A stretch of DNA of 64,000 nt. It comes from an uncultured Alphaproteobacteria bacterium. Lineage in GTDB: Bacteria > Pseudomonadota > Alphaproteobacteria > RF32 > CAG-239. The notes under the pieces were generated by a model, which saw nothing but the letters and a program-made list of their open reading frames with translations, ran no database searches and had not been told where the DNA came from. The DNA lies in the NCBI GenBank assembly GCA_944390315.1, contig CALXPO010000009.1, positions 10,945-74,944 of the forward strand, read 5' to 3'. A program made the position numbers and the translations under genes. Shown here piece by piece: positions 12,456-23,755 of the stretch (the stretch's first letter is position 1; each line of letters begins with the position of its first letter).

Positions 12456-13733
12456 ATGCTGGATATAAAATTTATTATCGAGAACCAACAATTGGTTGAA
12501 GAAGGAATAGCCAAAAAAGGCTTACAAGTTGATATCAAAGGACTTATTGCTTTACATAAAGATATTAATAAGCTCAAAACTTCTTCTCAGGCTTTGGCTG
12601 AAGAGAAGAATCGATTAAGTAACTCGATAAAATCAGCTTCTGCCGAAGAACGTCCCAACATTATTGCCAAAAGTAAAGCTCTTGGTGAAGAATTAAAGGC
12701 AGAACAAGAAAAACTGGCGGCAGAACAGGCAAAATTCGATGATATTATGTGGCGTATGCCCAATCTCCCCAGCCCAGAAAGTCCGGTCGGAAAAGATGAT
12801 AGTGAAAATGTGGTCAGAAGAAGAGTCGGCGAACCGACCAAGTTTGATTTTACACCGCGTGACCATGTCGAATTAATGGATTTAAACGGCTGGAGTGAAA
12901 TGGAACGCATTACCAAAGTTTGCGGTTCGAGAACTTATGCCATTACTAATGAATTGGCTCGTTTGGAACTGGCTATTCACTTGATAGTTATGGATAAATT
13001 GGCCGAAAACGGTTTTAGAGTCATTAACGTGCCGTCAATTTCCAAAGAAAAACCACTTTATGGACAAGGATATTTACCTTTTGCTCGTGACGAAATCTAC
13101 TATATGCCCGAAGATGATTTGTATTTGTCGGGAACGGCTGAGCTTATTTTGAATTCATTGCGTGCCGATGAAATTATTCCCGAAAATGAGTTGCCGATTT
13201 TATATGCCGGTTTTTCCCCTTGCTTTCGTCGCGAAGCCGGTGCGGCAGGCAAAGATACCAGAGGTTTAACGCGTGTCCATCAATTTTTAAAGACGGAACA
13301 ATTCGTTATCTGCAAAAACGATGTGAACGAAAGCGAAAAATGGCACAAAAAACTGTTGCAGATTTCCGAAGAAATTTTGCAAGATTTGGAGTTGCCGTAT
13401 CAGGTTTTGGAAGTTTGTACCGGTGATATGGGTGCGCCTAAATATCGTCAATATGATTTGGAAGCCTGGGTTCCGACACAAAATTGTTATCGTGAAACTC
13501 ACAGCTGTTCAAATATTACCGATTGGCAAGCACGCCGTACTAATTTGCGTTATCGTGATAATACAGATGGCAAGGTTAAATTTGTTCATACTTTGAACAA
13601 TACCGGTATTGCCACTCCGCGTGTCCTGGTTCCGTTTTTGGAAAATCATCAGCAAGCCGATGGCTCGATTCGTATCCCCGAAAAACTGCAACCCTATATG
13701 ATGGGTAAGAAATTTATCGGTGGAAAGAAGTAA
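12456..13733 (+). CDS. serS: Serine--tRNA ligase
   Basis: 425 aa with N-terminal coiled-coil arm and class II core. Divergent from trpS. Confidence 0.9.
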   Translation: MLDIKFIIENQQLVEEGIAKKGLQVDIKGLIALHKDINKLKTSSQALAEEKNRLSNSIKSASAEERPNIIAKSKALGEELKAEQEKLAAEQAKFDDIMWRMPNLPSPESPVGKDDSENVVRRRVGEPTKFDFTPRDHVELMDLNGWSEMERITKVCGSRTYAITNELARLELAIHLIVMDKLAENGFRVINVPSISKEKPLYGQGYLPFARDEIYYMPEDDLYLSGTAELILNSLRADEIIPENELPILYAGFSPCFRREAGAAGKDTRGLTRVHQFLKTEQFVICKNDVNESEKWHKKLLQISEEILQDLELPYQVLEVCTGDMGAPKYRQYDLEAWVPTQNCYRETHSCSNITDWQARRTNLRYRDNTDGKVKFVHTLNNTGIATPRVLVPFLENHQQADGSIRIPEKLQPYMMGKKFIGGKK

Positions 13734-13744
13734 TTTTATATAAA

Positions 13745-13780
13745 TTAAAAAAAATCCCGAGTATACCTCGGGATTTTTTT
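13745..13780 (+). terminator. Rho-independent terminator after serS
   Basis: aaaaaaaatcccgag-tatac-ctcgggattttttt: perfect 8-bp GC-rich stem followed by a T-run. Confidence 0.8.
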
Positions 13781-13787
13781 GTAAAAA

Positions 13788-13816
13788 ATTGACAAAAAAC
13801 TGTTTTCGGGTATAAT
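13788..13816 (+). promoter_or_regulatory. Near-consensus sigma70 promoter (TTGACA-N16/17-TATAAT) for the 1253-aa gene
   Basis: ttgaca at 13788-13793 and tataat at 13810-13815. A GAGGT RBS sits about 8 nt before the ATG at 13854. Confidence 0.65.
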
Positions 13817-13853
13817 TTTTATTATAAACTTATACAAAAAATGAGGTAAGGCG

Positions 13854-16800
13854 ATGGCTGAAAAAATTTTGCTGGGCGATGCCCTGAGAAGTATTATCTT
13901 AAAAGGTTCTAGGGAAACAGCCGCCGATTATGAACGTCAGTTGCGTGAAGCGGATAACGAACGTAAAAAAGCTCAGGCAGAGTTTAAGGAAAAAAGCGCC
14001 GGAAAAATAAAAGAACTGAAACAACAAATAAAAGAGTTAAGTGCCGAGATTAAAACCGCCGAACCGGCAAGAAAGAAGGAACTTGGCGAACAGATCAAAA
14101 AACTCAATGCCGAAATTGAACAATATAAAATTCCTCCCGTCAATCGTTTTACCTATCTTGACAGTGATATCAAGGCCTATGCCGGTGCCCAACTGTTGTT
14201 TAAGCCGATGTTGGGCGAAGAAGTTTTAAAAAGCAACAATATTGAATTTGACATAAACGAGCAGGGGCGTATTGAAGTCGACGCCAAGCAGCTGAGCGAC
14301 AGTGTTTTAGGCGACAAAATCAGAGAAGCTGCCGATTATATTTTCGTTCGTACTCGTGAGCTGAATGAAAAAATAACGCAAGCATCCGACATTAACAATA
14401 TTATTCGTGCCGATGCCAAAAATTTACTGAATATTGATGATGTTGAAAAAATAGATTTTGATTTAATTGAACGCTGCCACAAAGCCTATGAATATGAAAA
14501 TGCGGAAAAAGCACGCAGAAGAAAACAGGCAGAGCAACGCAAACAAGAAAGTTTGACCGGAATTAAAGTTATCAAAGAATATCCTGACGGCTATTCAATG
14601 GTTGAGATGCTGCCAAGCCCGGTTTATAACGAACAAGGAAAACTGTTGCATCACGCATCGCTGAAGTTTGAATCCGATGAAATGGGACACTGCGTCGGTC
14701 GCGGCGGCTACGACAAATATATTGGTGAAGAAGGGTGGCATTTTTATTCTCTGCGCGGGGCGGACGAAAACGGTGTAATGGTTCCGCACTGTACCATTTC
14801 AATAGAAAACGGCAAATTGGCACAAATTAAAGGTAATTCCAACGGTGCGGTTAAAAACAAATACATTCCCGATGTCAGAGATTTTGTAAAGTCTCTTGAT
14901 ATGCCGATACCTGAGTCCGAAAAATCAAGAATTGGTTATGTAAGAGATATCGATAGTCATGAAGTAGATCTGTTTGCCTTGGAAGCAGGTACCAGATTAA
15001 ATAAATTAAAATTGTCAGCCGGAGATCATAAGGGAATGAGGCTGGCTAATATTTCATATGTTAACACGCTCAGTTTTGAAGGCGGAGTAACTCAAAAAGA
15101 TTTTGAGGAAATTGCTAAAATCGGTAAAATAGAAAATCTGGTTTTGTCGGATGAAAACGAGGCTCAATGCTATGCACAAACTCTTCCCAAAGTTGAAAAA
15201 CTGATTATAAAAGGCAATTTTGCCATACCTGACCTTGGCAAAGTTCAGTATGCCAAATTCACGGCTATGCAGGAATATAATTTTGATTATAACTATGAGC
15301 AGCTGAAACAAATTGATTTTGATGAGAGAATTGTTCTCAATACCGAAAGAGCGCCAATCCTTGAAGAAGGAATTACGGGAGGTGCATGGGGCGATACCTC
15401 CAAACTTTCCACTAAAGAATTATTACTTAAAATGTTCGGCAGCAAGTGGGTGGAAAAGCACGTTTCCGAGCAAAACGGGCAATTGACCGTAGATACAGAT
15501 TTGAATTTTGACGGACGACGTCTGACCCGTTTTCCGTATGATTTCGGTCATGTAAAAATAAACGGAACGCTCAGTTTGCAAGATAATCTTTTAATGGATA
15601 ATGAGAGCCCCCTTGGATATCCCGAATGTCAAAAAATGATAATCAACCATTCGTACGGATGTCCGAAATTTGACCGATTTGAAACCTTACCGCGGTTGCC
15701 CGAAGGAATTGACTGTTTGGGTAGCAATGATATTGAGCTCTATACCAATTCCATCAGCAAAATTTCTCAAAAATTAAACATTACCAACGGCCAAAAATTA
15801 ACTCAGAAAGACGGCAAATTGTATTATCAAGGCGATTTGGATTTTTCAAAAGTTGCTGTTCTGATGCAAAGAAACTTAGAACTCGATATGAGCGAATTAT
15901 ATGTCGACGGTTCGGTTAAGGTTCCTCATAATACAAAATTTTTCCCCAATGCGAAAAAAATAGAAATTCCCTATGTGGACAGAGATATTCGTGTGCCGGA
16001 TGTGACGGAACAGATTATTGTGAACAATGCTTACGGCAATGACGGCCTGTACAATATTGAAGGAAAAAACTTAAAAAATATTACGTATAAAGATTATGTT
16101 CAGCTCAGAGCAACAGATTTACAAGGACTGAGTTCAAAACCTGACTACTGCGGAGAGTTTATTTTACGTCCGACGGAAGTTTCGGGAGTGGATTTGTCCG
16201 CTTGGAAATTGAAGCAAAAGCTACGTATATACGATGAACAGGTCTTCGAAAATGTGTCGATTCTGCCTCAGTGCCGCGAACTTAATATCGAATGTCCGCT
16301 GACAGAAACGATGCTTGCCAAGATAAATCCGCAAACCCAAACGCTTCGTTGTCAAAATTTGTTTGATGTCGATATGCTGCCGCGAGAAAGTCAGATAAAG
16401 TATGTCGGTGTAAGCTATCAGCAGACAAAAGATAAAGAAAGTTTTGACAAATTTATTCATCAGTTGTCTGAAAGAGGCATAATGATTGAGAACCTGAATA
16501 ATATTGATTATTCGCAAGATTTATCCGATATATTGGTCAAAAATGTTGAAATGCGTTGGAAAAGTGATATTAAAAATATTTCTAAATTTCCTAAAGCTGA
16601 AAAATTGCATATTTTAAGTCCGGGCTATGATTTTGAAAAAGATTTTTTAAAAGATGCAACTCCATATTTAAAGGAGTTGGAACTTGGTTATATGAATGAA
16701 AAGACGGATTTTTCGGCTTTGCCGTCTGATGTTAAACTTGAAAAACTACACATATATGACAGTTCCGTTCAGGCGGATATTTTTCGGCAACTGCCGACAT

Positions 16801-17615
16801 CTGTTAAGAGCGTTAACTTTTTAAGATGCAGAAATAATATTGATTTTGAAGCCATCAACAGTTTACCGAATTTGGAAAAACTGGAAATAAACCAAATGAA
16901 TGTTCCGGACAATGCCTTTGATAAAGTTGATCCTGAGCGTTTGAAACAAATTAAGATAAGCGGTGATGTGCGAACGGTTATGCGCGTACAAGAAATTTTA
17001 GCGATTCATCAGTTGCCGCCGACAGAAGAAAATAATAAAATTAAACAACTTCATCAATGGCTGACGGATGATAGAAATAATATTGATTATGCCGCTAAGC
17101 AAATTGTTTTTTATTCAACGGCCGCAGATGTGTTGAAGGGCAAGCATCCGCAACCGATAACGGCGGAAGAATTGTCGGCTCGCGTTCGTGGTGTTGAAAA
17201 GTTTAAATTAGACAGTTGTGCCAAAATTATTATGGCTAATGAACTCAATCATAAAACAGGCGATGATAAAATCGGCAGAACGGTTTTAGACGATTATAAG
17301 GGTAAAAAAGCCGGATATTATACTCATATGTCAAACTATTATGAGCGAGATAAAGATTTTGGCAAGATTGGTCAAATTATGAAAGCAGCGGTAACCCGTA
17401 ACATAAAACATCATCCTGATTTTAGGAAAGCTGAAAATATAGTTGAAGACAGAATGGGTGCGCATCAACGGTCGCTGCAATCCGATTTCAATCGATTGTT
17501 GAGTGAGCGAGCTGAAAGTCTCACAACTTATGAGTATTATAATCAATCGAGATTCAAGGCAGATAAATATAGCTTTAATCAAGCGGTGCAAAAAATGTGT
17601 GAATATAAACGCTGA
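13854..17615 (+). CDS. Large (1253 aa) coiled-coil / LRR-like repeat protein of unknown function; eukaryotic-like effector candidate
   Basis: N-terminal ~100 aa Lys/Glu-rich coiled coil. Conserved-looking His/Cys module (GHCVGRGGYDKYIGEEGWHFYSLRG…PHCTI). C-terminal half with leucine-rich-repeat-like periodicity (LEKLHIYDSS, LPNLEKLEINQMNV, LKELELGYMN). No signal peptide visible. Monocistronic between a strong promoter and a terminator. Confidence 0.5.
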   Translation: MAEKILLGDALRSIILKGSRETAADYERQLREADNERKKAQAEFKEKSAGKIKELKQQIKELSAEIKTAEPARKKELGEQIKKLNAEIEQYKIPPVNRFTYLDSDIKAYAGAQLLFKPMLGEEVLKSNNIEFDINEQGRIEVDAKQLSDSVLGDKIREAADYIFVRTRELNEKITQASDINNIIRADAKNLLNIDDVEKIDFDLIERCHKAYEYENAEKARRRKQAEQRKQESLTGIKVIKEYPDGYSMVEMLPSPVYNEQGKLLHHASLKFESDEMGHCVGRGGYDKYIGEEGWHFYSLRGADENGVMVPHCTISIENGKLAQIKGNSNGAVKNKYIPDVRDFVKSLDMPIPESEKSRIGYVRDIDSHEVDLFALEAGTRLNKLKLSAGDHKGMRLANISYVNTLSFEGGVTQKDFEEIAKIGKIENLVLSDENEAQCYAQTLPKVEKLIIKGNFAIPDLGKVQYAKFTAMQEYNFDYNYEQLKQIDFDERIVLNTERAPILEEGITGGAWGDTSKLSTKELLLKMFGSKWVEKHVSEQNGQLTVDTDLNFDGRRLTRFPYDFGHVKINGTLSLQDNLLMDNESPLGYPECQKMIINHSYGCPKFDRFETLPRLPEGIDCLGSNDIELYTNSISKISQKLNITNGQKLTQKDGKLYYQGDLDFSKVAVLMQRNLELDMSELYVDGSVKVPHNTKFFPNAKKIEIPYVDRDIRVPDVTEQIIVNNAYGNDGLYNIEGKNLKNITYKDYVQLRATDLQGLSSKPDYCGEFILRPTEVSGVDLSAWKLKQKLRIYDEQVFENVSILPQCRELNIECPLTETMLAKINPQTQTLRCQNLFDVDMLPRESQIKYVGVSYQQTKDKESFDKFIHQLSERGIMIENLNNIDYSQDLSDILVKNVEMRWKSDIKNISKFPKAEKLHILSPGYDFEKDFLKDATPYLKELELGYMNEKTDFSALPSDVKLEKLHIYDSSVQADIFRQLPTSVKSVNFLRCRNNIDFEAINSLPNLEKLEINQMNVPDNAFDKVDPERLKQIKISGDVRTVMRVQEILAIHQLPPTEENNKIKQLHQWLTDDRNNIDYAAKQIVFYSTAADVLKGKHPQPITAEELSARVRGVEKFKLDSCAKIIMANELNHKTGDDKIGRTVLDDYKGKKAGYYTHMSNYYERDKDFGKIGQIMKAAVTRNIKHHPDFRKAENIVEDRMGAHQRSLQSDFNRLLSERAESLTTYEYYNQSRFKADKYSFNQAVQKMCEYKR

Positions 17616-17616
17616 C

Positions 17617-17648
17617 AAAAAGCCGCTCGTAATTATGAGCGGCTTTTT
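17617..17648. terminator. Bidirectional rho-independent terminator
   Basis: aaaaagccgctcgtaattatgagcggcttttt: 8-bp stem with an A-run on one side and a T-run on the other. Separates the convergent 1253-aa gene and the small-membrane-protein operon. Confidence 0.8.
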
Positions 17649-17677
17649 GATATCATATGGAGAGATTATGCTTAAAA

Positions 17678-18109
17678 TTAAAGCGGTGTTGTTCCCGGTG
17701 TTGCCCAAAAAGCGACGGGATTTTCTTTGCATATTTCAAAGAAAATAGGGTAAGTCAAGGTAGTGATTGCAAACCAAAGGACAAACGCGGTCAAAGAAAG
17801 AGCATAAGCAGTCGCGTGTTTCTTAAAGTTTTTCTCTGTTGTAAACATCAAAGGCAAAGCCCGGTAAAAGATATATGCGCCGATGAGCAGTGGTACGACA
17901 TTTTCAAATGTATACAGATAAATATTGTCTTTACTGTCAGTTCGTCCGGGGATGACAATGGTTATAAAATCTTCAATTAAGAAATAGAAATAGACACTCC
18001 AAGCCCATAAGAAGAAAATTTGAAAGATGAGGATAAAAGAAGCCGCAAGCGGTCTTTGTTTGAAATTTTGTATGTAATGATTAAAGTAATTAATGATTTT
18101 ATCTTTCAT
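17678..18109 (-). CDS. Small 4-TM membrane protein, paralog B of a tandem pair
   Basis: 143 aa. MKDKIINYFNHYIQNFKQRP… is about 60-65% identical to the upstream gene product. Start overlaps the upstream stop by 1 nt (TAATG). Confidence 0.6.
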   Translation of the reverse strand: MKDKIINYFNHYIQNFKQRPLAASFILIFQIFFLWAWSVYFYFLIEDFITIVIPGRTDSKDNIYLYTFENVVPLLIGAYIFYRALPLMFTTEKNFKKHATAYALSLTAFVLWFAITTLTYPIFFEICKENPVAFWATPGTTPL

Positions 18110-18591
18110 TATTGTTTATCCTTAACAAAATTTTCTTGGGTAGGAGTGATTAATATCTTTGAAACCATAGGTTGAGGTTCTTTTGCCCAAAAGGTGTAAG
18201 CAACCTCTTTATATGTTCCGAATAAAATACTGTGAGGAGCCGTCAGCATAAAAAGCCAACAAATAAATCCCATAAAAGATAGAGCATAAGCAGTCGCGCG
18301 TTTTTTTAAATTCTTCTCTGTCACAAACATCAAAGGTAAACTACGGTAAAAGATATATCCGCAGACAATAAACAAAGTAATGTTATCAAGTATAAACAGA
18401 TAAACATTTTGTTTGCCCGATAGAAATCCGGGGATAACAATGGTTATAAAATCCTCAATTAAGAAATAGAAACATATTCCCCACCACCATAAGAAAAAAA
18501 TTTGAAAGATGAGGGTAAAAGAAGCAGCAATCGGTCTTTGTTTGAAGTTTTGCAGATACCGATTAAGGTAATTAATGATTTTATCTTTCAT
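18109..18591 (-). CDS. Small 4-TM membrane protein, paralog A of a tandem pair
   Basis: 160 aa. MKDKIINYLNRYLQNFKQRP…. Same hydropathy layout as paralog B. AGGACAGG RBS. Confidence 0.6.
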   Translation of the reverse strand: MKDKIINYLNRYLQNFKQRPIAASFTLIFQIFFLWWWGICFYFLIEDFITIVIPGFLSGKQNVYLFILDNITLFIVCGYIFYRSLPLMFVTEKNLKKRATAYALSFMGFICWLFMLTAPHSILFGTYKEVAYTFWAKEPQPMVSKILITPTQENFVKDKQ

Positions 18592-18639
18592 GCGACCTGT
18601 CCTTTCAGAAATTTTGCCATGCGATGATAAAGGAATTTT

Positions 18640-19017
18640 TTATATAAATTTGGGGATTAAAAATGAAGGCAAAAGCCCTTGCAAAAAAAAGATGATAAAA
18701 ATTATGGCGTAAAATATCACAACCGCCGACAGTCGAACAATGAAAAAATGTTTGGGGTTGAGCCATACTTTTCCCAATCGATAAAAAGCGTAAGGGAAGA
18801 TAAGTAACTGTAAAAAGATGTGCATAAAGCCAAAGACATAATCATCAAGAGAAAATCCCGCTCGGTTGACAATGTAGAGCCTCACGGCATAAACGATGTA
18901 GAAAACGAAAAATCCCCATCCGAGCCCAAGGACGCCCTTCTGTAATAAGGTCAAGATTTGCGCAAGGAGCATATTTTTTTTATTGTTTTGAGAAGAAATT
19001 TCAGTTTCGTTTTTCAT
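18640..19017 (-). CDS. Small polytopic membrane protein, unknown function
   Basis: I prefer the internal start MKNETEIS at 19017, which has a GAGG RBS 5 nt upstream, over the ORF-track start at 19080. About 4 TM segments. Confidence 0.5.
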   Translation of the reverse strand: MKNETEISSQNNKKNMLLAQILTLLQKGVLGLGWGFFVFYIVYAVRLYIVNRAGFSLDDYVFGFMHIFLQLLIFPYAFYRLGKVWLNPKHFFIVRLSAVVIFYAIIFIIFFLQGLLPSFLIPKFI

Positions 19018-19192
19018 AAAAACCTCATTTTTTATGGAGAAAACATCGGCTTGCCTTTGTCTGCGGTCAAACAGAAACAACCTATTAATAGGTTATAACA
19101 AAAGGGAAAATAAGTCAATCTAAAATTGAATATTTTTATACAACAGCAATTTTCAATTGAAATAACTGGTGGCAGATAAAAACAACCTTCAA

Positions 19193-19714
19193 TTACTGCG
19201 GATAAGAATTGCGGACGAAGCGAACGATATCGGCATCTGCCCAAGAGGTAAACTCAATTGTCGAAATATCTGGCATTAGGTTTGAGAAAATACTTTCCAC
19301 TGCCCATAAAGCATAAGGTATCAAAAAAAAGATGCCGACGGAGCATAAAAGAATTAAAATTTTCTTGCCGGCACCGACTTGCTCAACAAAAAAACCGCGA
19401 TAAAAACGAACAAATAAGGGGACGGATATGACCAAAAGCAATAAAATTTCCCCAATAACCGTATAAACACCGTAACAAGGTACGGTCGGTAAAGAAAAGT
19501 CGCAATAGCACCCTTTGGTTACAATCATAGTCAACGCATGACCGATTTCACTGAAATATACCCACCAACCGATAATAAACAGAAGATTCAACAAATTATG
19601 ACCGTATCTTTCGGCTTTGGTCGAAGTATATTCGGCGGTTTTCGGCGTATAAGAAGGGGTGTATCGCGTATTCATAAATTTTCTCCCGATAAATTTAAGA
19701 TTATCATAGGACAA
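19193..19714 (-). CDS. Polytopic membrane protein, unknown function
   Basis: 173 aa with hydrophobic segments (LLNLLFIIGWWVYF, VIGEILLLLVISVPLF, ILILLCSVGIFFLIPYALW). First gene of the minus-strand 4-gene cluster. Divergent from the HAD gene. Confidence 0.5.
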   Translation of the reverse strand: MSYDNLKFIGRKFMNTRYTPSYTPKTAEYTSTKAERYGHNLLNLLFIIGWWVYFSEIGHALTMIVTKGCYCDFSLPTVPCYGVYTVIGEILLLLVISVPLFVRFYRGFFVEQVGAGKKILILLCSVGIFFLIPYALWAVESIFSNLMPDISTIEFTSWADADIVRFVRNSYPQ

Positions 19715-19829
19715 ACTAAATTAAGAAACAACTTCTTTTATTGTGTAAAAAATACCGGAGAAAATGGGGTTTTGCTTGTAATTTTATCAAATTGCTTTAT
19801 CCTCATAGTCAAAACGGAGAAATTGTCGA

Positions 19830-20509
19830 TGCAAAAATTAGATGTAAACAAGTTAAAAGTTGCGGTATTTGATTGGGACGGAACTTTGGCGCAAACACGA
19901 ACACCGCGATTGTGGGCGGTTAATCAAATTATGCCCCGCTACGGATTGCCCGACTGGGAACAAACCAAAGATAAACAAGATAAATATTTATCGTTTATGG
20001 ACAATTTTGCATTGGTGTTCGGAAAAGATAAAGCTCAGGAAGCCTATCGTCAATATTGCGAAATTTATCTGCAAAATGTGGCGCGAATGATAACTTTGTT
20101 TGCCGGAGTTAAAGAATGTCTGAGTTGGCTCAAACAAAAAAATGTCAAACTGGCGGTTATGACCAACAAAGACAGAAAATTACTCGACTTCGAATTGCCT
20201 TTGTTGCTTTCTCCCGAGCTTTTTGACAATATTGTCTGCGGACACGAGGCAAAACAAGATAAACCAAGCGGAGAACATGCTCTTGCCGCTCTCAACGGCC
20301 TGATAAATCGAAACGAGATTTCTCCCGAAAGTGTGTGGATTGTCGGAGACAGCTTGCTTGACAATCTTTGTGCGTTGGCAGTTCACGCCTGTCCGATAAG
20401 AATTGTCGGTCAAGCCCCGAGAATTGAAAAAGCAGCCGACGAAGAAGTCATCTATTTTGACAGCTTTAACGATTTTTACCAAACGATAAAAGCGGAGGAC
20501 AAACTTTGA
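19830..20509 (+). CDS. HAD-superfamily hydrolase (phosphatase)
   Basis: Motif I VAVFDWDGTLAQT. Motif IV GDSLLD. I place the start at ATG 19830 (MQKLDV…). The upstream part of the ORF-track call overlaps the opposite-strand gene and has no HAD content. Confidence 0.7.
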
Positions 20510-22050
20510 AACAAGAAACGGATGACAAAAAAGCTCTTATTCGACGCTTTATATTGATTGCGGTTGCGGTTATATTGTTAGGTGTGCTGAATTATGCTTA
20601 TTTCAAAAAGCAAATTTCTTCTAACAATGAAAAAATAACCGATTATGTAAAGGAAGAAGACCCGATGGAAAAATACCGTGATCCCGCCGTTGCCGGCATA
20701 TTTTATGCAGACAGTCCCAGCGAACTTTCCCATGAAGTTGATGGCTATCTGAATATGTTTAAAAACGGAAACAGACAAAAACCGAAAATTTTGATAGTTC
20801 CGCATGCCGGTTATCAATACAGCGGTTATGCTGCCGCCAAGGCCTATCGCGGACTTGAAAAATATGCCGATAAAATTAAAAACGTTATTTTGCTCGGACC
20901 GTCGCATCGTACGGCTCTCTACGGAATAGCCGTTTCCACGGCGGATTACTTTACAACGCCGCTCGGAAAAATTGCGCTAAATAAAGAAATTAATTCAGAG
21001 CTGGTTGAACATCGAGGTTTTGCCTATAATGACCGTGCTCACAAAGATGAGCATTCGCTTGAAGTGCAGTTACCGTTCCTGCAAAAAGTTTTGTCCGATT
21101 TCAAAATTATACCGCTCGTTTACGGAGAAATAAATCCACAAGACGTGGCCGAAGTTTTGCAGCCTTATTTGCAAAATGAGGATACGTTGTTGGTTGTATC
21201 GGCTGATTTGTCACACTATTATCCTTATGATGAGGCGAGAATAATTGATGCCGAAACCGCACAGAAAATTGAAGATACCAGCGCTGATATTGATTATCAT
21301 CATTCTTGCGGTGCCGGAGGAATCAACAGTGCTTTAATATTATCGGAAATTATGCGTCTTAAACCTGAAACTTTGGCTTTGATAAATTCGGGTGACAGTT
21401 CCGGAGCCAAAGACAAAGTTGTCGGCTACGGAGCCTGGACTTTTGCCGAAAGCAATTTGGAGCGGCAAAGGGATGCTCTGAGAGAATTTACAAAAGAATA
21501 TAGAGATGAGTTGTTGCGTTTGGCCAGAACATCTTTGGAAGAGGCCGTACTTCACCAACGAAAATACGAACCTTCACGCGATGATTTTTCCGAAGTTTTG
21601 TTTAATAAAGGTGCCACTTTTGTGACTTTGACCGAAGAAAATAATTTGCGAGGGTGCATCGGAACACTGTTGCCGCGGGAAGCCGTTGCGGCGGATATTG
21701 CTCAAAATGCTTATGCGGCGGCATTAAACGACCGTCGGTTTAATCCGGTGACGGTCGAAGAACTGGATAAAATCAAGATTTCGATATCATTTTTGACCGG
21801 ATATGAACGTATGATTTATCAAGATGAAGAAGATTTGTTAAAGATGATTGAAGCCGGTACGGACGGTATGGTTATTCGCGACGGCAACAGGCAGGGATTG
21901 TTTTTGCCTTCGGTATGGGAGCAAATTCCCGATAAAAAAGAATTTTTACAAAATCTCAAGCTCAAAGCAGGTATGAGCCCGAGTTATTGGTCAAACAGCA
22001 TTAAAGTTTATCGTTTCAGAACCGTGGAGATAAAGGAAAATGAAAATTAA
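20506..22050 (+). CDS. Fused MEMO1-like (AmmeMemoRadiSam protein B) + AMMECR1 (protein A) domains
   Basis: N-terminal half has Memo motifs (RDPAVAGIFYAD, ILIVPHAGYQYSGYAAA, GPSHR, SADLSHYYP). C-terminal half is an AMMECR1 domain (GATFVTLTEENNLRGCIGTL…). A TTG start at 20506 gives an N-terminal TM-like segment. The alternative ATG start (MEKYRDPAVAG) is near 20665. Confidence 0.7.
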   Translation: MKQETDDKKALIRRFILIAVAVILLGVLNYAYFKKQISSNNEKITDYVKEEDPMEKYRDPAVAGIFYADSPSELSHEVDGYLNMFKNGNRQKPKILIVPHAGYQYSGYAAAKAYRGLEKYADKIKNVILLGPSHRTALYGIAVSTADYFTTPLGKIALNKEINSELVEHRGFAYNDRAHKDEHSLEVQLPFLQKVLSDFKIIPLVYGEINPQDVAEVLQPYLQNEDTLLVVSADLSHYYPYDEARIIDAETAQKIEDTSADIDYHHSCGAGGINSALILSEIMRLKPETLALINSGDSSGAKDKVVGYGAWTFAESNLERQRDALREFTKEYRDELLRLARTSLEEAVLHQRKYEPSRDDFSEVLFNKGATFVTLTEENNLRGCIGTLLPREAVAADIAQNAYAAALNDRRFNPVTVEELDKIKISISFLTGYERMIYQDEEDLLKMIEAGTDGMVIRDGNRQGLFLPSVWEQIPDKKEFLQNLKLKAGMSPSYWSNSIKVYRFRTVEIKENEN

Positions 22051-23755
22051 CGGATACGAGATTAAATATAGTGAACAGGATTTGGAAAATAAAATTAACA
22101 ATCAGACTTTGGAAATAAAGCTGATAACGCCTGAATTTGAGGGATATAAAAGTTTAAGCGAAGGCAATCAAAAAGCCTTGAAACATTTGGTTGCCGCTGC
22201 CAAAATAATAAATGACGTGAGTTTGGAGCAAGACCATCCGCACAACCTTGCGCAAAAACAAGCTCTGGAAGCCGCCGCGTCCGACAATAATCAGGCCAAA
22301 TTGGCTTTGATGTTGTTTAACAGTTTGAACGGTTTGGCCGGTTATAACGGAATTGATAAAGAACCGATTGAAATTTTTGAGGGTTTGCATTTGTTGCCGG
22401 GACATAATTTTTATCCTGAAGATTTATCAACTGATGAGTTATGCCGCATTTTGAAAAAAATGTTGGCGGAAGGTAAAATCAAGCAGGTAAGTGATATTTT
22501 GAGTGCCCGTACGATGGTCAGAAAAAAAGGTAATGAGCTTGAGGGGATAGATTATACCGAATATTTCGAAAAAGAATTTTCGGCTGTTGCCAACGAATTG
22601 GAAGTTGCGGCGCACTATTGCGATGACGAGGCTTTCAAGGATTATCTCGGCTGGCAGGCGCAAGCCCTTATTCAAAACAATCCCGATATGGATATGTTGG
22701 CCGACAAACATTGGGCTGTTCTGCAAGATTGCCCGTTGGAATTTACACTCAGCCGCGAGAATTATGATGATGAAATTACACCTTCGGTTTATAATGACGC
22801 AGAATTGAAAGCCTTATTGGAAAAGAACGGTATCGAAGCCGTATCCAAAGATATGCTCGGTGCCAGAGTCGGAATTGTGAACAAAGCCGGTACCGATTTA
22901 ATTTTACAATTCAAAAAACATATTCCCGAATTGGCGCATAAAATGCCTTATGCCGACCGCTATCACCAAAGTATTTTGGACGGAGAAGAACTCAAACAGA
23001 CGATGGTTGATGTCGATTTGGCGGATTTGGAAGGAGATTATGCTCAATGCCGCGGCGGAATTACCACGGCACAGAATTTGCCCAATAATGATAAGTTGGC
23101 GGTAAAGACCGGTGGCGGTCGTCGTAATGTCTATCATCGCCAGGTCAGACAATGTGTGGACAAAGAAAAAGAAAGAAAAATGCTCGAGATGTTGGTTGCG
23201 CCCGAATTGCATCAATATTTTGATAATGAGGCCGATCATTTGTTTGTCATCGGTCACGAAAACGGACATTCTCTCGGTCCTGACAGTAGTTATCAAAACG
23301 CTTTGGGAAACTATAAGCATATTCTTGAGGAACACAAAGCCGATACTATTTCTTTGACATTTATGTCCGACTATGTCAAAGCCGGTGTCATTGACGCAAA
23401 AACCTTGAAGAAAGTCTATGTCAGTTACATTTGCGGACGGATGTTTTTGATTGCGCGTCCGCATATGATGCTGCCGCATCGTATGGGCGAGCTGATACAA
23501 TTCAACTATTTGCGTGAAAAGGGAGTTATCAAAGAAAATGCGGCAGGAAAAGTCGAAATTGACTTGGAAAACATGCAAACGGCCTTAAATCAACTGTTGC
23601 AGGAAACGATTGAAGTTCAATTGTCAAAATCGCCCGAAAAAGCTGCCGCTTTTGTGGAAAAGTACAGCCAATGGTCCGAACTTTCGCAGAAAATTGCGTC
23701 CGTACGCCAAAAACTCGGGGTTAAACCTTATAAACGAATTGTCAGAAGTTTTTAA
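22040..23755 (+). CDS. Putative zinc metallopeptidase, DPP III (M49)-like
   Basis: HEXXGH-type motif GHENGHSLGP followed by EEHKAD, resembling the M49 second zinc-ligand motif EEXR/KAE/D. 571 aa. 11-nt overlap with the upstream gene. Family assignment is tentative. Confidence 0.4.
   Translation: MKINGYEIKYSEQDLENKINNQTLEIKLITPEFEGYKSLSEGNQKALKHLVAAAKIINDVSLEQDHPHNLAQKQALEAAASDNNQAKLALMLFNSLNGLAGYNGIDKEPIEIFEGLHLLPGHNFYPEDLSTDELCRILKKMLAEGKIKQVSDILSARTMVRKKGNELEGIDYTEYFEKEFSAVANELEVAAHYCDDEAFKDYLGWQAQALIQNNPDMDMLADKHWAVLQDCPLEFTLSRENYDDEITPSVYNDAELKALLEKNGIEAVSKDMLGARVGIVNKAGTDLILQFKKHIPELAHKMPYADRYHQSILDGEELKQTMVDVDLADLEGDYAQCRGGITTAQNLPNNDKLAVKTGGGRRNVYHRQVRQCVDKEKERKMLEMLVAPELHQYFDNEADHLFVIGHENGHSLGPDSSYQNALGNYKHILEEHKADTISLTFMSDYVKAGVIDAKTLKKVYVSYICGRMFLIARPHMMLPHRMGELIQFNYLREKGVIKENAAGKVEIDLENMQTALNQLLQETIEVQLSKSPEKAAAFVEKYSQWSELSQKIASVRQKLGVKPYKRIVRSF

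Follow-up and report, generated by a model that had tools for sequence, protein, structure and literature searches.

Organization of the Locus

The stretch of DNA analyzed here (the window, 64,000 nucleotides) carries one large gene directly downstream of serS and, converging on it, four genes for small membrane proteins (Table 1). The initial annotation had described a strong near-consensus promoter right after the serS terminator, a single ORF of 1253 aa and a perfect bidirectional hairpin terminator, all of which were confirmed. Only 8 nt separate the serS terminator hairpin from the TTGACA element. The perfect TTGACA-N16-TATAAT arrangement was found once in 64 kb, compared with 0.03 occurrences expected from shuffled sequences. 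In five syntenic loci, the −35 and −10 hexamers are kept while the flanking sequence diverges. In nine fetched loci, TTGACA-N16-18-TAYAAT is located 30–65 bp upstream of the homolog and is the sole match in each; two of these nine (L006 and L010) keep the promoter despite a different upstream gene. The terminator at the other end, AAAAAGCCGCTC-GTAATTAT-GAGCGGCTTTTT, folds with −23.4 kcal/mol (z = −5.15), and 0 of 200 shuffles folded as well. It is bidirectional because its arms consist of an A-run and a T-run. With a conserved near-consensus promoter of its own and a strong terminator, the 1253-aa ORF forms an autonomous transcription unit of a single gene.

Table 1. Positions of the features at the locus, numbered from the first nucleotide of the window.
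Feature	Position	Strand	Details
serS intrinsic terminator hairpin	13748..13780	+	AAAAAAATCCCGAG-tatac-CTCGGGATTTTTTT; upstream boundary of the unit
Sigma-70-type promoter TTGACA-N16-TATAAT	13789..13816	+	12/12 match
Shine-Dalgarno GAGG	13843..13846	+	ATG 7 nt downstream; read directly from the sequence
CDS, 1253 aa	13854..17615	+	ATG start; soluble protein; 12-member family
Residues 1–227, structured helical domain	13854..14534	+	long helical hairpin 20–91; AlphaFold2, HMM
Residues 228–392, divergent PcfJ-like (PF14284) domain	14535..15029	+	judged from profile homology and signature residues
Residues 393–1040, about six super-repeats of ~108 aa	15030..16973	+	hhalign self-match
Residues 1041–1253 plus stop, orphan C-terminal domain	16974..17615	+	net-basic (+7); conserved, found in the family only
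Bidirectional intrinsic terminator	17616..17649	.	15-bp perfect stem, common to both convergent units
mp143, 143 aa, 3-TM	17678..18109	-	lineage-specific paralog family; dN/dS 0.23 vs L001
mp160, 160 aa	18109..18591	-	recent mp143 paralog, 60% identity
mp125, divergent paralog	18640..19080	-	likely ATG 19017 (125 aa), possible extension to 19080
"173-aa" ORF	19193..19714	-	likely 160 aa from ATG at 19675 (homologs); most divergent member

Evolution of the Large Gene

The large gene has a GC content of 0.387 against 0.388 for the window; a horizontal-transfer signature, for which the initial annotation had suggested looking, was not seen. Its product is 74% identical to that of locus L001, where the neighboring HAD, Memo and 571-aa genes reach 58–71%, and its dN/dS is ~0.14. 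The gene is under purifying selection and shows no unusual evolutionary rate. It keeps its place beside serS in nine loci among housekeeping genes, and no presence/absence polymorphism was found among the syntenic genomes. The family is hosted by gut-associated uncultured Alphaproteobacteria, and within this clade the gene has been inherited vertically beside serS.

No signal peptide and no hydrophobic segment were found in the 1253-aa protein (maximum Kyte–Doolittle 19-residue score 0.67), which is soluble and probably cytoplasmic.

The PcfJ-Like Head

The motifs quoted in the initial annotation from a "His-Cys module" were all located in the ORF: GHCVGRGGY at residues 278–286, GWHFYSLRG at 294–302 and PHCTI at 311–315. 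Pfam and profile searches made the module recognisable. When residues 228–392 were compared alone with PF14284, a match of 16.0 bits (E = 0.011) to profile positions 77–141 of 147 was obtained, which falls under the gathering score of 25 bits; the full-length protein gave nothing against PF14284 at E ≤ 1, and one of the 12 family members reaches E = 0.0065. With the profile of residues 228–392, 1,723 cluster representatives were recovered at E ≤ 1e-3, of which 188 also pass E ≤ 1e-10; the superfamily thus comprises no fewer than 1,723 clusters at 50% identity. PF14284 matches were present in 32 of 41 sampled recruited relatives, the best at 3.6e-16. In an alignment of 31 sequences (A8), C280, G327 and Y337 are invariant, and E273, M277, S299, R301, P311, H312, T314 and Q324 are at least 90% conserved; all of them are found in the window protein. 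Judged by transitive profile homology and the shared signature, E-x3-M-x-H-C-x-G ... Y-S-L-R ... P-H-x-T-I-E ... Q-x-K-G-x-x-N ... K-Y, the module is a divergent PcfJ-like (PF14284) domain. The "two His-Cys dyads" of the initial annotation do not hold across the superfamily, where C313 (the second Cys) and H279 are not conserved.

PF14284 is named after PcfJ of Enterococcus faecalis plasmid pCF10. PcfJ-like proteins are frequently encoded by conjugative plasmids, phages and many bacterial chromosomes, and neither a function nor a solved structure is known for any of them. The function had been called uncharacterised from the outset, and indeed a literature search found no functional study of any PcfJ-like protein. 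The window gene differs from its relatives in lying on the chromosome beside serS, not in a plasmid or phage, and in its product of 1253 aa, whereas the relatives are mostly 200–1000 aa long. The protein also has the second Cys (C313), carries Gly after SLR, where Asp is usual, and adds the super-repeat array and the orphan C-terminal domain. On the other hand, many relatives share the preceding helical region as well as a following repeat or LRR region.

The helical region had been taken for a coiled-coil N-terminus. The long helices stand, but the region is a conserved folded domain and not a long generic coiled coil. An HMM of residues 1–227 matches 42 non-family relatives with E down to 2.7e-42, and the predicted head models are confident, with pLDDT values of 89.6 (residues 1–227, AlphaFold2) and 89.9 and a pTM of 0.85. 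The N-domain and the PcfJ-like domain form a conserved "head" of ~390 aa common to many relatives.

Relatives of the head carry LRR_4, Ank, WD40, pentapeptide and AAA/STAND domains, and those in the alignment show an LRR-type continuation, "NLPxxLxVxGDLDL". An association with mobile elements is seen in PHROG families 3169, 7484 and 8470, which match relatives, in one phage contig that was matched directly, and in P0016, whose neighbors are MTase, KAP NTPase, T5orf172 and SSB genes. An alternative reading is that the large gene on its own constitutes an anti-phage or anti-plasmid immune sensor-effector, in which detection of an invader component by the solenoid would switch on the PcfJ-like head. 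Such a role is suggested by the fusions of superfamily members to STAND/AAA NTPases and a HigB-like toxin, by their variable repeat sensors, and by the MTase, KAP NTPase and T5orf172 genes around P0016. PcfJ-like proteins are moreover targets of DGRs in CPR bacteria (PMC5758913), and no part of the window protein varies more than its repeat region. Nevertheless, PADLOC gave no defence match, its sole hit being a coiled-coil-type ZorA at E = 0.076, and the PcfJ-like domain is more typical of mobile elements themselves. The fixed position beside serS in nine loci among housekeeping genes, the lack of presence/absence polymorphism among syntenic genomes and the overall purifying selection also speak against it, and we regard an immune sensor as unlikely.

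Repeat Region and C-Terminal Domain

The C-terminal half was initially annotated as leucine-rich-repeat-like. That it is strongly repetitive was borne out by the self-match of residues 393–1040 (hhalign probability 99.3%, E 9e-21) with a main offset of ~108 aa, accompanied by weaker sub-periods of 20–26 aa. The LRR assignment fared less well. The strict LxxLxLxxN motif was observed 3 times against 1.08 expected (p ~0.09), which is no enrichment, and LRR_4 scored 14 bits on the 1253-aa protein against a cut-off of 27 bits. LRR_R13L1-DRL21 matches 6 of the 12 family members, the best with E 2.6e-4. The ~650-aa super-repeat solenoid is only weakly LRR-like, mainly at residues 950–1015. It is the most variable part of the protein (62% identity to L001). 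The C-terminal domain (residues 1041–1253) was found in its own family alone and is an orphan in searches; with 83% identity and dN/dS of 0.11, it is conserved and not polymorphic.

This architecture invites comparison with bacterial LRR and "eukaryotic-like" repeat effectors. The region is likewise repetitive and solenoid-like, with one canonical unit at about residues 571–600 and sub-threshold LRR_R13L1-DRL21, LRR_4 and FNIP matches near residues 950–1015. It differs from them in the unenriched LxxLxLxxN motif, in a period of ~108 aa rather than 20–30 aa and in having no secretion signal. A secreted host-interaction effector would use its repeats to bind a host target, and its basic C-terminal domain would serve as an export signal of a non-Sec type, such as type IV or type I. 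The gut-associated hosts, the size of the P0005 cluster (584 members across many contigs), the orphan domain of net charge +7 and the strong conserved promoter are compatible with this proposal, as is the repeat/LRR-like architecture. It is, however, difficult to reconcile with a window and loci in which no secretion-system gene or known translocation signal was found, with a large protein that has no eukaryotic-like domain above threshold, and with a head common to phage, plasmid and environmental relatives rather than to known effectors. Secretion as an effector is quite unlikely in our judgment.

The Small Membrane-Protein Array

The four convergent genes had been described as encoding small membrane proteins that include recent paralogs. 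This description is upheld, as a Kyte–Doolittle scan found 2–4 hydrophobic segments in each protein, and mp143 and mp160 are evident recent duplicates. The lengths of 143, ~125 and 160 aa were retained, but "173 aa" is to be replaced by a more likely 160 aa. The mp160 stop and the mp143 start overlap by 1 nt at TAATG. Against the membrane family, mp125 and the "173-aa" ORF score 17.6 and 15.8 bits, respectively, compared with 10.8 bits for the best decoy. The copy number is four in the window, one plus remnants in L001 and at least 5–7 in L003/L005. The L003 array includes a YkuD/Tlde1-like gene. In L011, two DUF308 membrane proteins come after a distant homolog.

Of the 12 informative loci, 4 have the membrane family next to the large gene. 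At L016, the array is missing although a 78%-identical ortholog and the trpS-serS synteny are kept; it is also missing at L017, L018, L006, L007, L008, L010 and L011, including all non-syntenic contexts. These observations show that the array is a separate, copy-number-variable paralog family in a variable downstream slot and not a partner of the large gene.

The same observations decide the fate of the pairing suggested in the initial annotation, which saw an effector- or toxin-immunity style locus; the small membrane proteins would then be immunity or export partners. Like polymorphic toxin/immunity-array loci, the locus does have an adjacent array of lineage-specific, rapidly duplicating small membrane genes of strain-dependent copy number, and the YkuD/Tlde1-like gene and the DUF308 pair could be read in the same sense. 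Yet the array is absent in 8 of the 12 informative loci, L016 and L017/L018 among them, and in the window it is convergent across a strong terminator instead of following the large gene in the same orientation. Searches of the large protein with Pfam, NCBIfam and PADLOC found neither a toxin or PAAR/Rhs/LXG domain nor a secretion domain, and PADLOC gave no match on the four membrane proteins; the initial annotation had likewise recognised no toxin, secretion or immunity domain. Furthermore, the large protein has a conserved C-terminus, not a polymorphic one, and no signal peptide. The co-occurrence result already largely refutes a toxin-immunity locus, which we consider very improbable. What lies downstream of the large gene is a variable slot in which a lineage-specific 3-TM family expands and contracts, and the negative pairing result guards against wrongly classing the locus as a toxin-immunity module.

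Predicted Fold and Proposed Function

The predicted alpha/beta fold of residues 228–392 appears to resemble GNAT/MYST/HAT1 enzymes. The fold matches are weak; in both runs, Foldseek independently ranked MYST enzymes first. In GNAT enzymes, motif A (Q/RxxGxG/A) is the pyrophosphate-binding loop between beta4 and alpha3, and MYST enzymes use Cys and Glu for catalysis. In the module, a Cys is invariant and Glu residues are conserved. In the model, its loop Q324-I-K-G327-N-S-N330-G-A, between the predicted strand 321–326 and helix 335–347, places Q-x-K-G before a helix at what may be a motif-A-like position. It differs from these enzymes in having no detectable sequence relationship: hhalign of alignment A8 against the human KAT8 core gave a probability of 0.3%, and no acetyltransferase model of Pfam or NCBIfam matched. 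The module model shows no evident counterpart of alpha4-beta6, the C-terminal half of the GNAT core. A PDB profile search with the module returned 0 matches at E ≤ 10, and no solved structure was found by sequence.

An alternative is a non-catalytic module whose conserved Cys, His and Glu would serve as ligands of a structural metal, in a protein acting as an abundant scaffold or cytoskeleton-like coiled-coil/solenoid protein. The weakness of the fold matches to enzymes speaks for it, the conserved residues are compatible with a metal site, and long helices together with a strong constitutive-type promoter would suit such a protein. However, only one Cys is invariant, the conserved set of E, C, R, H, T, Q, G, N and Y is more active-site-like than a Cys/His zinc knuckle, and the N-terminal helices belong to a conserved folded domain instead of a long generic coiled coil. 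A scaffold therefore seems unlikely to us.

We favor the proposal that the PcfJ-like head is an enzyme-like module, to which the invariant Cys, the near-invariant His, Glu and Arg, and the Q-x-K-G-x-x-N loop between strand and helix would contribute. On this view, the head would most likely transfer an acyl-type group or otherwise covalently modify a macromolecular target, which the repeat solenoid would select. The most plausible setting would be one in which the head recognizes and modifies foreign or partner macromolecules, since its relatives occur in phages and plasmids and are fused to LRR, WD40, Ank, pentapeptide, STAND and AAA modules. Against a role in conflict, a core cellular role would account at least equally well for the stable housekeeping neighborhood, the constitutive-type promoter and the purifying selection. 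Taken together, an autonomous, vertically inherited PcfJ-like gene, a separate membrane array and an acyltransferase-like head guided by the solenoid make up the best joint explanation, to which we would give an even chance. A broader and rather doubtful conjecture is that the PcfJ-like superfamily is an unrecognised, divergent MYST/HAT1-like acyltransferase branch with a Cys/His/Glu site and repeat "sensors", of which the window gene is a domesticated member.

Implications

The analysis yields a testable hypothesis for the whole superfamily, namely an acyltransferase-like head (invariant Cys; conserved His, Glu and Arg) with a guiding repeat solenoid. The large gene offers a clean single-gene PcfJ-like representative, which appears to be highly expressed and is inherited vertically in gut Alphaproteobacteria that are abundant although uncultured. 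If the conjecture were true, phages, plasmids and bacteria would deploy PcfJ-like heads on variable repeats to modify specific macromolecular targets covalently, and the window gene would be a chromosomal representative that has been domesticated and is strongly expressed in Alphaproteobacteria common in the human gut.

An autonomous gene downstream of serS

The large gene is best read as an autonomous gene for a soluble protein of the PcfJ-like superfamily. The features described for this region in the initial annotation were all found in place and are listed in the table. The near-consensus promoter reported behind the serS terminator matches at 12/12 positions, and the 64 kb contain a single perfect TTGACA-N16-TATAAT, where shuffles predict 0.03. 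In nine fetched loci a TTGACA-N16-18-TAYAAT sequence was observed 30-65 bp 5′ of the homolog, being the sole match within each, which gives ten family loci including the window. It is retained in two of the nine, L006 and L010, despite a different upstream gene. The large gene follows serS in 9 loci. What is conserved is the order of serS and large gene together with the large gene's own promoter. Judged from these promoter elements the gene is strongly promoted, and we agree with its earlier description as both uncharacterised and strongly promoted. The hairpin at its end (AAAAAGCCGCTC-GTAATTAT-GAGCGGCTTTTT) has a folding energy of -23.4 kcal/mol (z = -5.15) and is usable from both sides because of its A-runs and T-runs, as the initial annotation had described. 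The flanks are housekeeping in nature: an ABC-2/HlyD/CecR operon, trpS, serS, HAD, Memo-AMMECR1 and dnaE.

Coordinates of features in the window and in two other loci carrying homologs of the large gene (L003, L011)
Feature	Locus	Position	Strand	Description
serS terminator hairpin	window	13748-13780		promoter begins 8 nt 3′ of hairpin
Promoter	window	13789-13816		TTGACA-N16-TATAAT
Shine-Dalgarno	window			GAGG, 7 nt 5′ of large-gene ATG
Large-gene ORF	window	13854-17615	+	1253 aa
GIxGGxWGDxS motif	window	15363-15557		residues ~504-568
Hairpin terminator	window	17616-17649		15-bp perfect stem; large gene stops 1 nt before
Variable slot	window	17678-19714		between large gene and HAD
Four membrane ORFs	window		-	143, 160, 146 (probably 125) and 173 (probably 160) aa; convergent on terminator
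HAD hydrolase, longest ORF call	window	19538-20509	+	overlaps 173-aa membrane ORF
Memo-AMMECR1	window	20506-22050	+	514 aa
571-aa ORF	window	22040-23755	+	3′ of Memo-AMMECR1
Duplicated stretch	L003	13172-14275	-	just 3′ of large gene; ORFs 13678-13935 and 14000-14275
N-run	L003	14928-15197		further downstream, between simple repeats
Fused membrane copy	L003	16520-17461		~190-aa disordered N-terminal extension
296-aa ORF	L003	19969-20859	-	within expanded paralog array
DUF308 pair	L011	7989-9234	+	same strand, 3′ of P0011

The convergent membrane-protein array

The four small membrane-protein genes converging on the terminator are present as described, and it had been suggested that they form one module with the large gene, possibly as an effector/immunity pair. 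A co-occurrence check speaks otherwise. Among the 12 loci with downstream sequence, the array lies beside the large gene in four (the window, L001, L003 and L005) and is absent from eight. A 78% identical ortholog in the same trpS-serS synteny (L016) is followed by a U32 peptidase and DUF3108, and two further serS-syntenic loci (L017, L018) by a methyltransferase. In different contexts, MlaC and MlaA come next where TPR is upstream (L006, L007, L010), unknown genes where Rho is upstream (L008), and two DUF308 genes in L011. The large gene and the membrane array do not belong together. In line with its solubility, the large protein shows neither a signal peptide nor a hydrophobic segment anywhere in its length. 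A role as secreted effector is considered unlikely.

Within the array, mp143 and mp160 are 60% identical. An HMM of the core paralogs, scored against 1,000 composition-matched decoys, gave 17.6 bits for the 125-aa and 15.8 bits for the 173-aa protein versus 10.8 bits for the best decoy; all four belong to a single divergent family. It is tiny and lineage-restricted, and purifying selection acts on mp143 (dN/dS 0.23). The window has four copies, L001 a single one plus remnants, and L003/L005 at least five to seven; the slot is variable relative to all three, and the L001 remnants are degraded.

Locus L003 comes from the 'Azospirillum sp. 51_20' MAG. Its 296-aa ORF matches the YkuD L,D-transpeptidase domain (E 7.7e-7) and the Tlde1 domain (E 8.9e-6) and has an HGG...SAGCID motif, with no equivalent in the window array. 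One membrane copy of L003 is fused to a disordered extension, the two near-identical ORFs just 3′ of the large gene indicate local tandem duplication, and the N-run is probably an assembly gap. In L011, two tandem DUF308 (HdeD-like) polytopic proteins, unrelated to the window membrane family, follow P0011, which of the full-length homologs that have the C-terminal domain is the most divergent; they are a second case of downstream small membrane paralogs, which may be coincidental.

On the far side of the array, the HAD gene most likely starts at the ATG at 19826 ('MQKLDVNKLKVAVFDWDGT'), as comparison with L003 suggests, which would leave a ~110-150-bp divergent intergenic region between it and the array. 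The next gene encodes one protein in which a Memo-like part (E 1.4e-51) is fused with AMMECR1 (E 7e-46). The 571-aa ORF has no Pfam match at E <= 1e-5 and contains 'VIGHENGHSLGP', an HExxH zincin-like motif.

The PcfJ-like head

The invariant residues of the family alignment cluster at 233-376. This region had been described as a compact module with two His-Cys dyads; it was found to be a PcfJ-like domain, and the large protein is not domain-less. Scanned alone, this stretch matches Pfam PF14284 (PcfJ-like) at E = 0.011 and 16 bits, below the 25-bit cut-off. A search of 1.84 billion cluster representatives with a profile of residues 228-392, using no word index, retrieved 1,723 proteins at E <= 1e-3, with 188 at E <= 1e-10. 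Since 32 of 41 sampled hits match PF14284, down to 3.6e-16, superfamily membership is secure by transitive homology even with the Pfam threshold unmet.

A 31-sequence alignment gave the signature E-x3-M-x-H-C-x-G ... Y-S-L-R ... P-H-x-T-I-E ... Q-x-K-G-x-x-N ... K-Y, in which C280, G327 and Y337 are invariant and E273, M277, S299, R301, P311, H312, T314 and Q324 are conserved at >= 90%. The motifs quoted in the initial annotation were located at residues 278-286, 294-302 and 311-315. The 'two His-Cys dyads' are not the functional unit, as H279 and the second cysteine, C313, show no conservation across the superfamily.

The N-terminus, previously called a coiled coil, is not a generic one. AlphaFold2 confidently predicts residues 1-405 as a helical domain that runs on into the alpha/beta module (pLDDT 89.6), and an HMM of residues 1-227 matches 42 relatives outside the family (E down to 2.7e-42), in each case immediately N-terminal to the PcfJ-like domain. 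This co-occurrence defines a conserved head of ~390 aa.

The domain-only model, which is confident (pLDDT 89.9, pTM 0.85), and the long model independently placed MYST enzymes at the top of the Foldseek ranking, and the domain alone retrieved MOF, KAT6A, HBO1 and NuA3/NuA4, all at insignificant scores (E 0.09-0.4, TM 0.2-0.36). In the predicted model, the conserved loop Q324-I-K-G-N-S-N330 lies between a strand and a helix, which we take to be where GNAT motif A sits. MYST enzymes use a cysteine and a glutamate. A sequence bridge to MYST failed, as hhalign against the real KAT8 core from the PDB gave 0.3% probability, and no meaningful sequence match to a solved structure was found in the PDB with the full protein or with module, C-terminal or superfamily profiles. 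We therefore treat an acyltransferase-like mechanism as a reasoned hypothesis and not as a finding. PD-(D/E)XK nuclease and papain-like readings of the conserved E/C/H/Q-x-K pattern, which follow motif order only, were set aside because all structural neighbours have the NAT fold. The conserved head is probably enzymatic and, by its modelled fold, possibly acyltransferase-like; that the protein is instead a non-catalytic scaffold seems improbable.

Repeats, C-terminus and selection

An LRR-like C-terminal half had been proposed, and its repetitive nature is borne out: residues 393-1040 match themselves at 99.3% hhalign probability (E 9e-21), with dominant offsets of 102-112 aa and weaker ones of 20-26 and about 45 aa. 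The resemblance to LRRs is weak: LxxLxLxxN in its strict form is not enriched, and Pfam LRR/FNIP matches are sub-threshold and restricted to about 950-1015. In relatives, the head is followed by clear LRR_4, Ank, WD40 or pentapeptide repeats or by AAA/STAND modules, and in many it continues directly into 'NLPxxLxVxGDLDL'. The repeat solenoid would probably pick the target for the head. A role as immune sensor, for which such AAA/STAND modules might be cited, is considered unlikely. Full-length Pfam, NCBIfam and PADLOC scans returned coiled-coil noise only. Residues 1041-1253 are conserved in the family (net +7), and HMM and profile searches including the PDB found no relative of them outside it.

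A ~50-65-aa motif, 'GIxGGxWGDxSxLSTKELLxKMxGxKWVExH..E.NG....D.DL', seems to represent a small, so far unrecognised repeat unit ahead of an LRR-type 'LxxxPxDFG' unit. The window protein has one copy, the homolog clusters P0008/P0009 have two, the second through insertion of a ~95-aa duplication, and P0011 has about three.

A fast-evolving arms-race gene was considered from the first comparison of serS (94%) and large protein (48%). This reading was dropped because neighbouring proteins diverge equally or more: relative to L001, identity is 74% for the large protein, 58% for HAD, 61% for Memo-AMMECR1 and 71% for the 571-aa protein. Moreover, the dN/dS of the large gene is about 0.14 with dS near saturation, with a minimum of 0.06-0.07 in the head and a maximum of 0.20 in the repeats. 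No horizontal-transfer signature was found; GC and GC3 of the large gene match the neighbourhood.

Distribution and significance

Among 5.8 billion proteins, the large protein has 12 homolog clusters, none of them named (0/12). Every genome match is a MAG of an uncultured gut alphaproteobacterium; several bear the label 'Azospirillum sp.', and the guts sampled include those of humans and water deer. Cluster P0005 comprises 584 member sequences spread over many contigs, and the family is therefore common in gut metagenomes.

Plasmid tblastn gave no match, and viral contigs scanned with close-family patterns, which are too narrow to reach the wider superfamily, gave no relative. A relative with 22% identity is encoded on one phage contig from the human gut, and several PHROG families, each of 'unknown function', are matched by short relatives. 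The gene for P0016, a close relative outside the family, has MTase, KAP NTPase, T5orf172 and SSB genes as neighbours. No functional study of PcfJ, PcfJ-like or PF14284 proteins was found in the literature; the sole substantive mention found names the PcfJ-like domain in proteins targeted by DGRs in CPR bacteria (PMC5758913). The large gene offers a way into a superfamily that is very large and uncharacterised.
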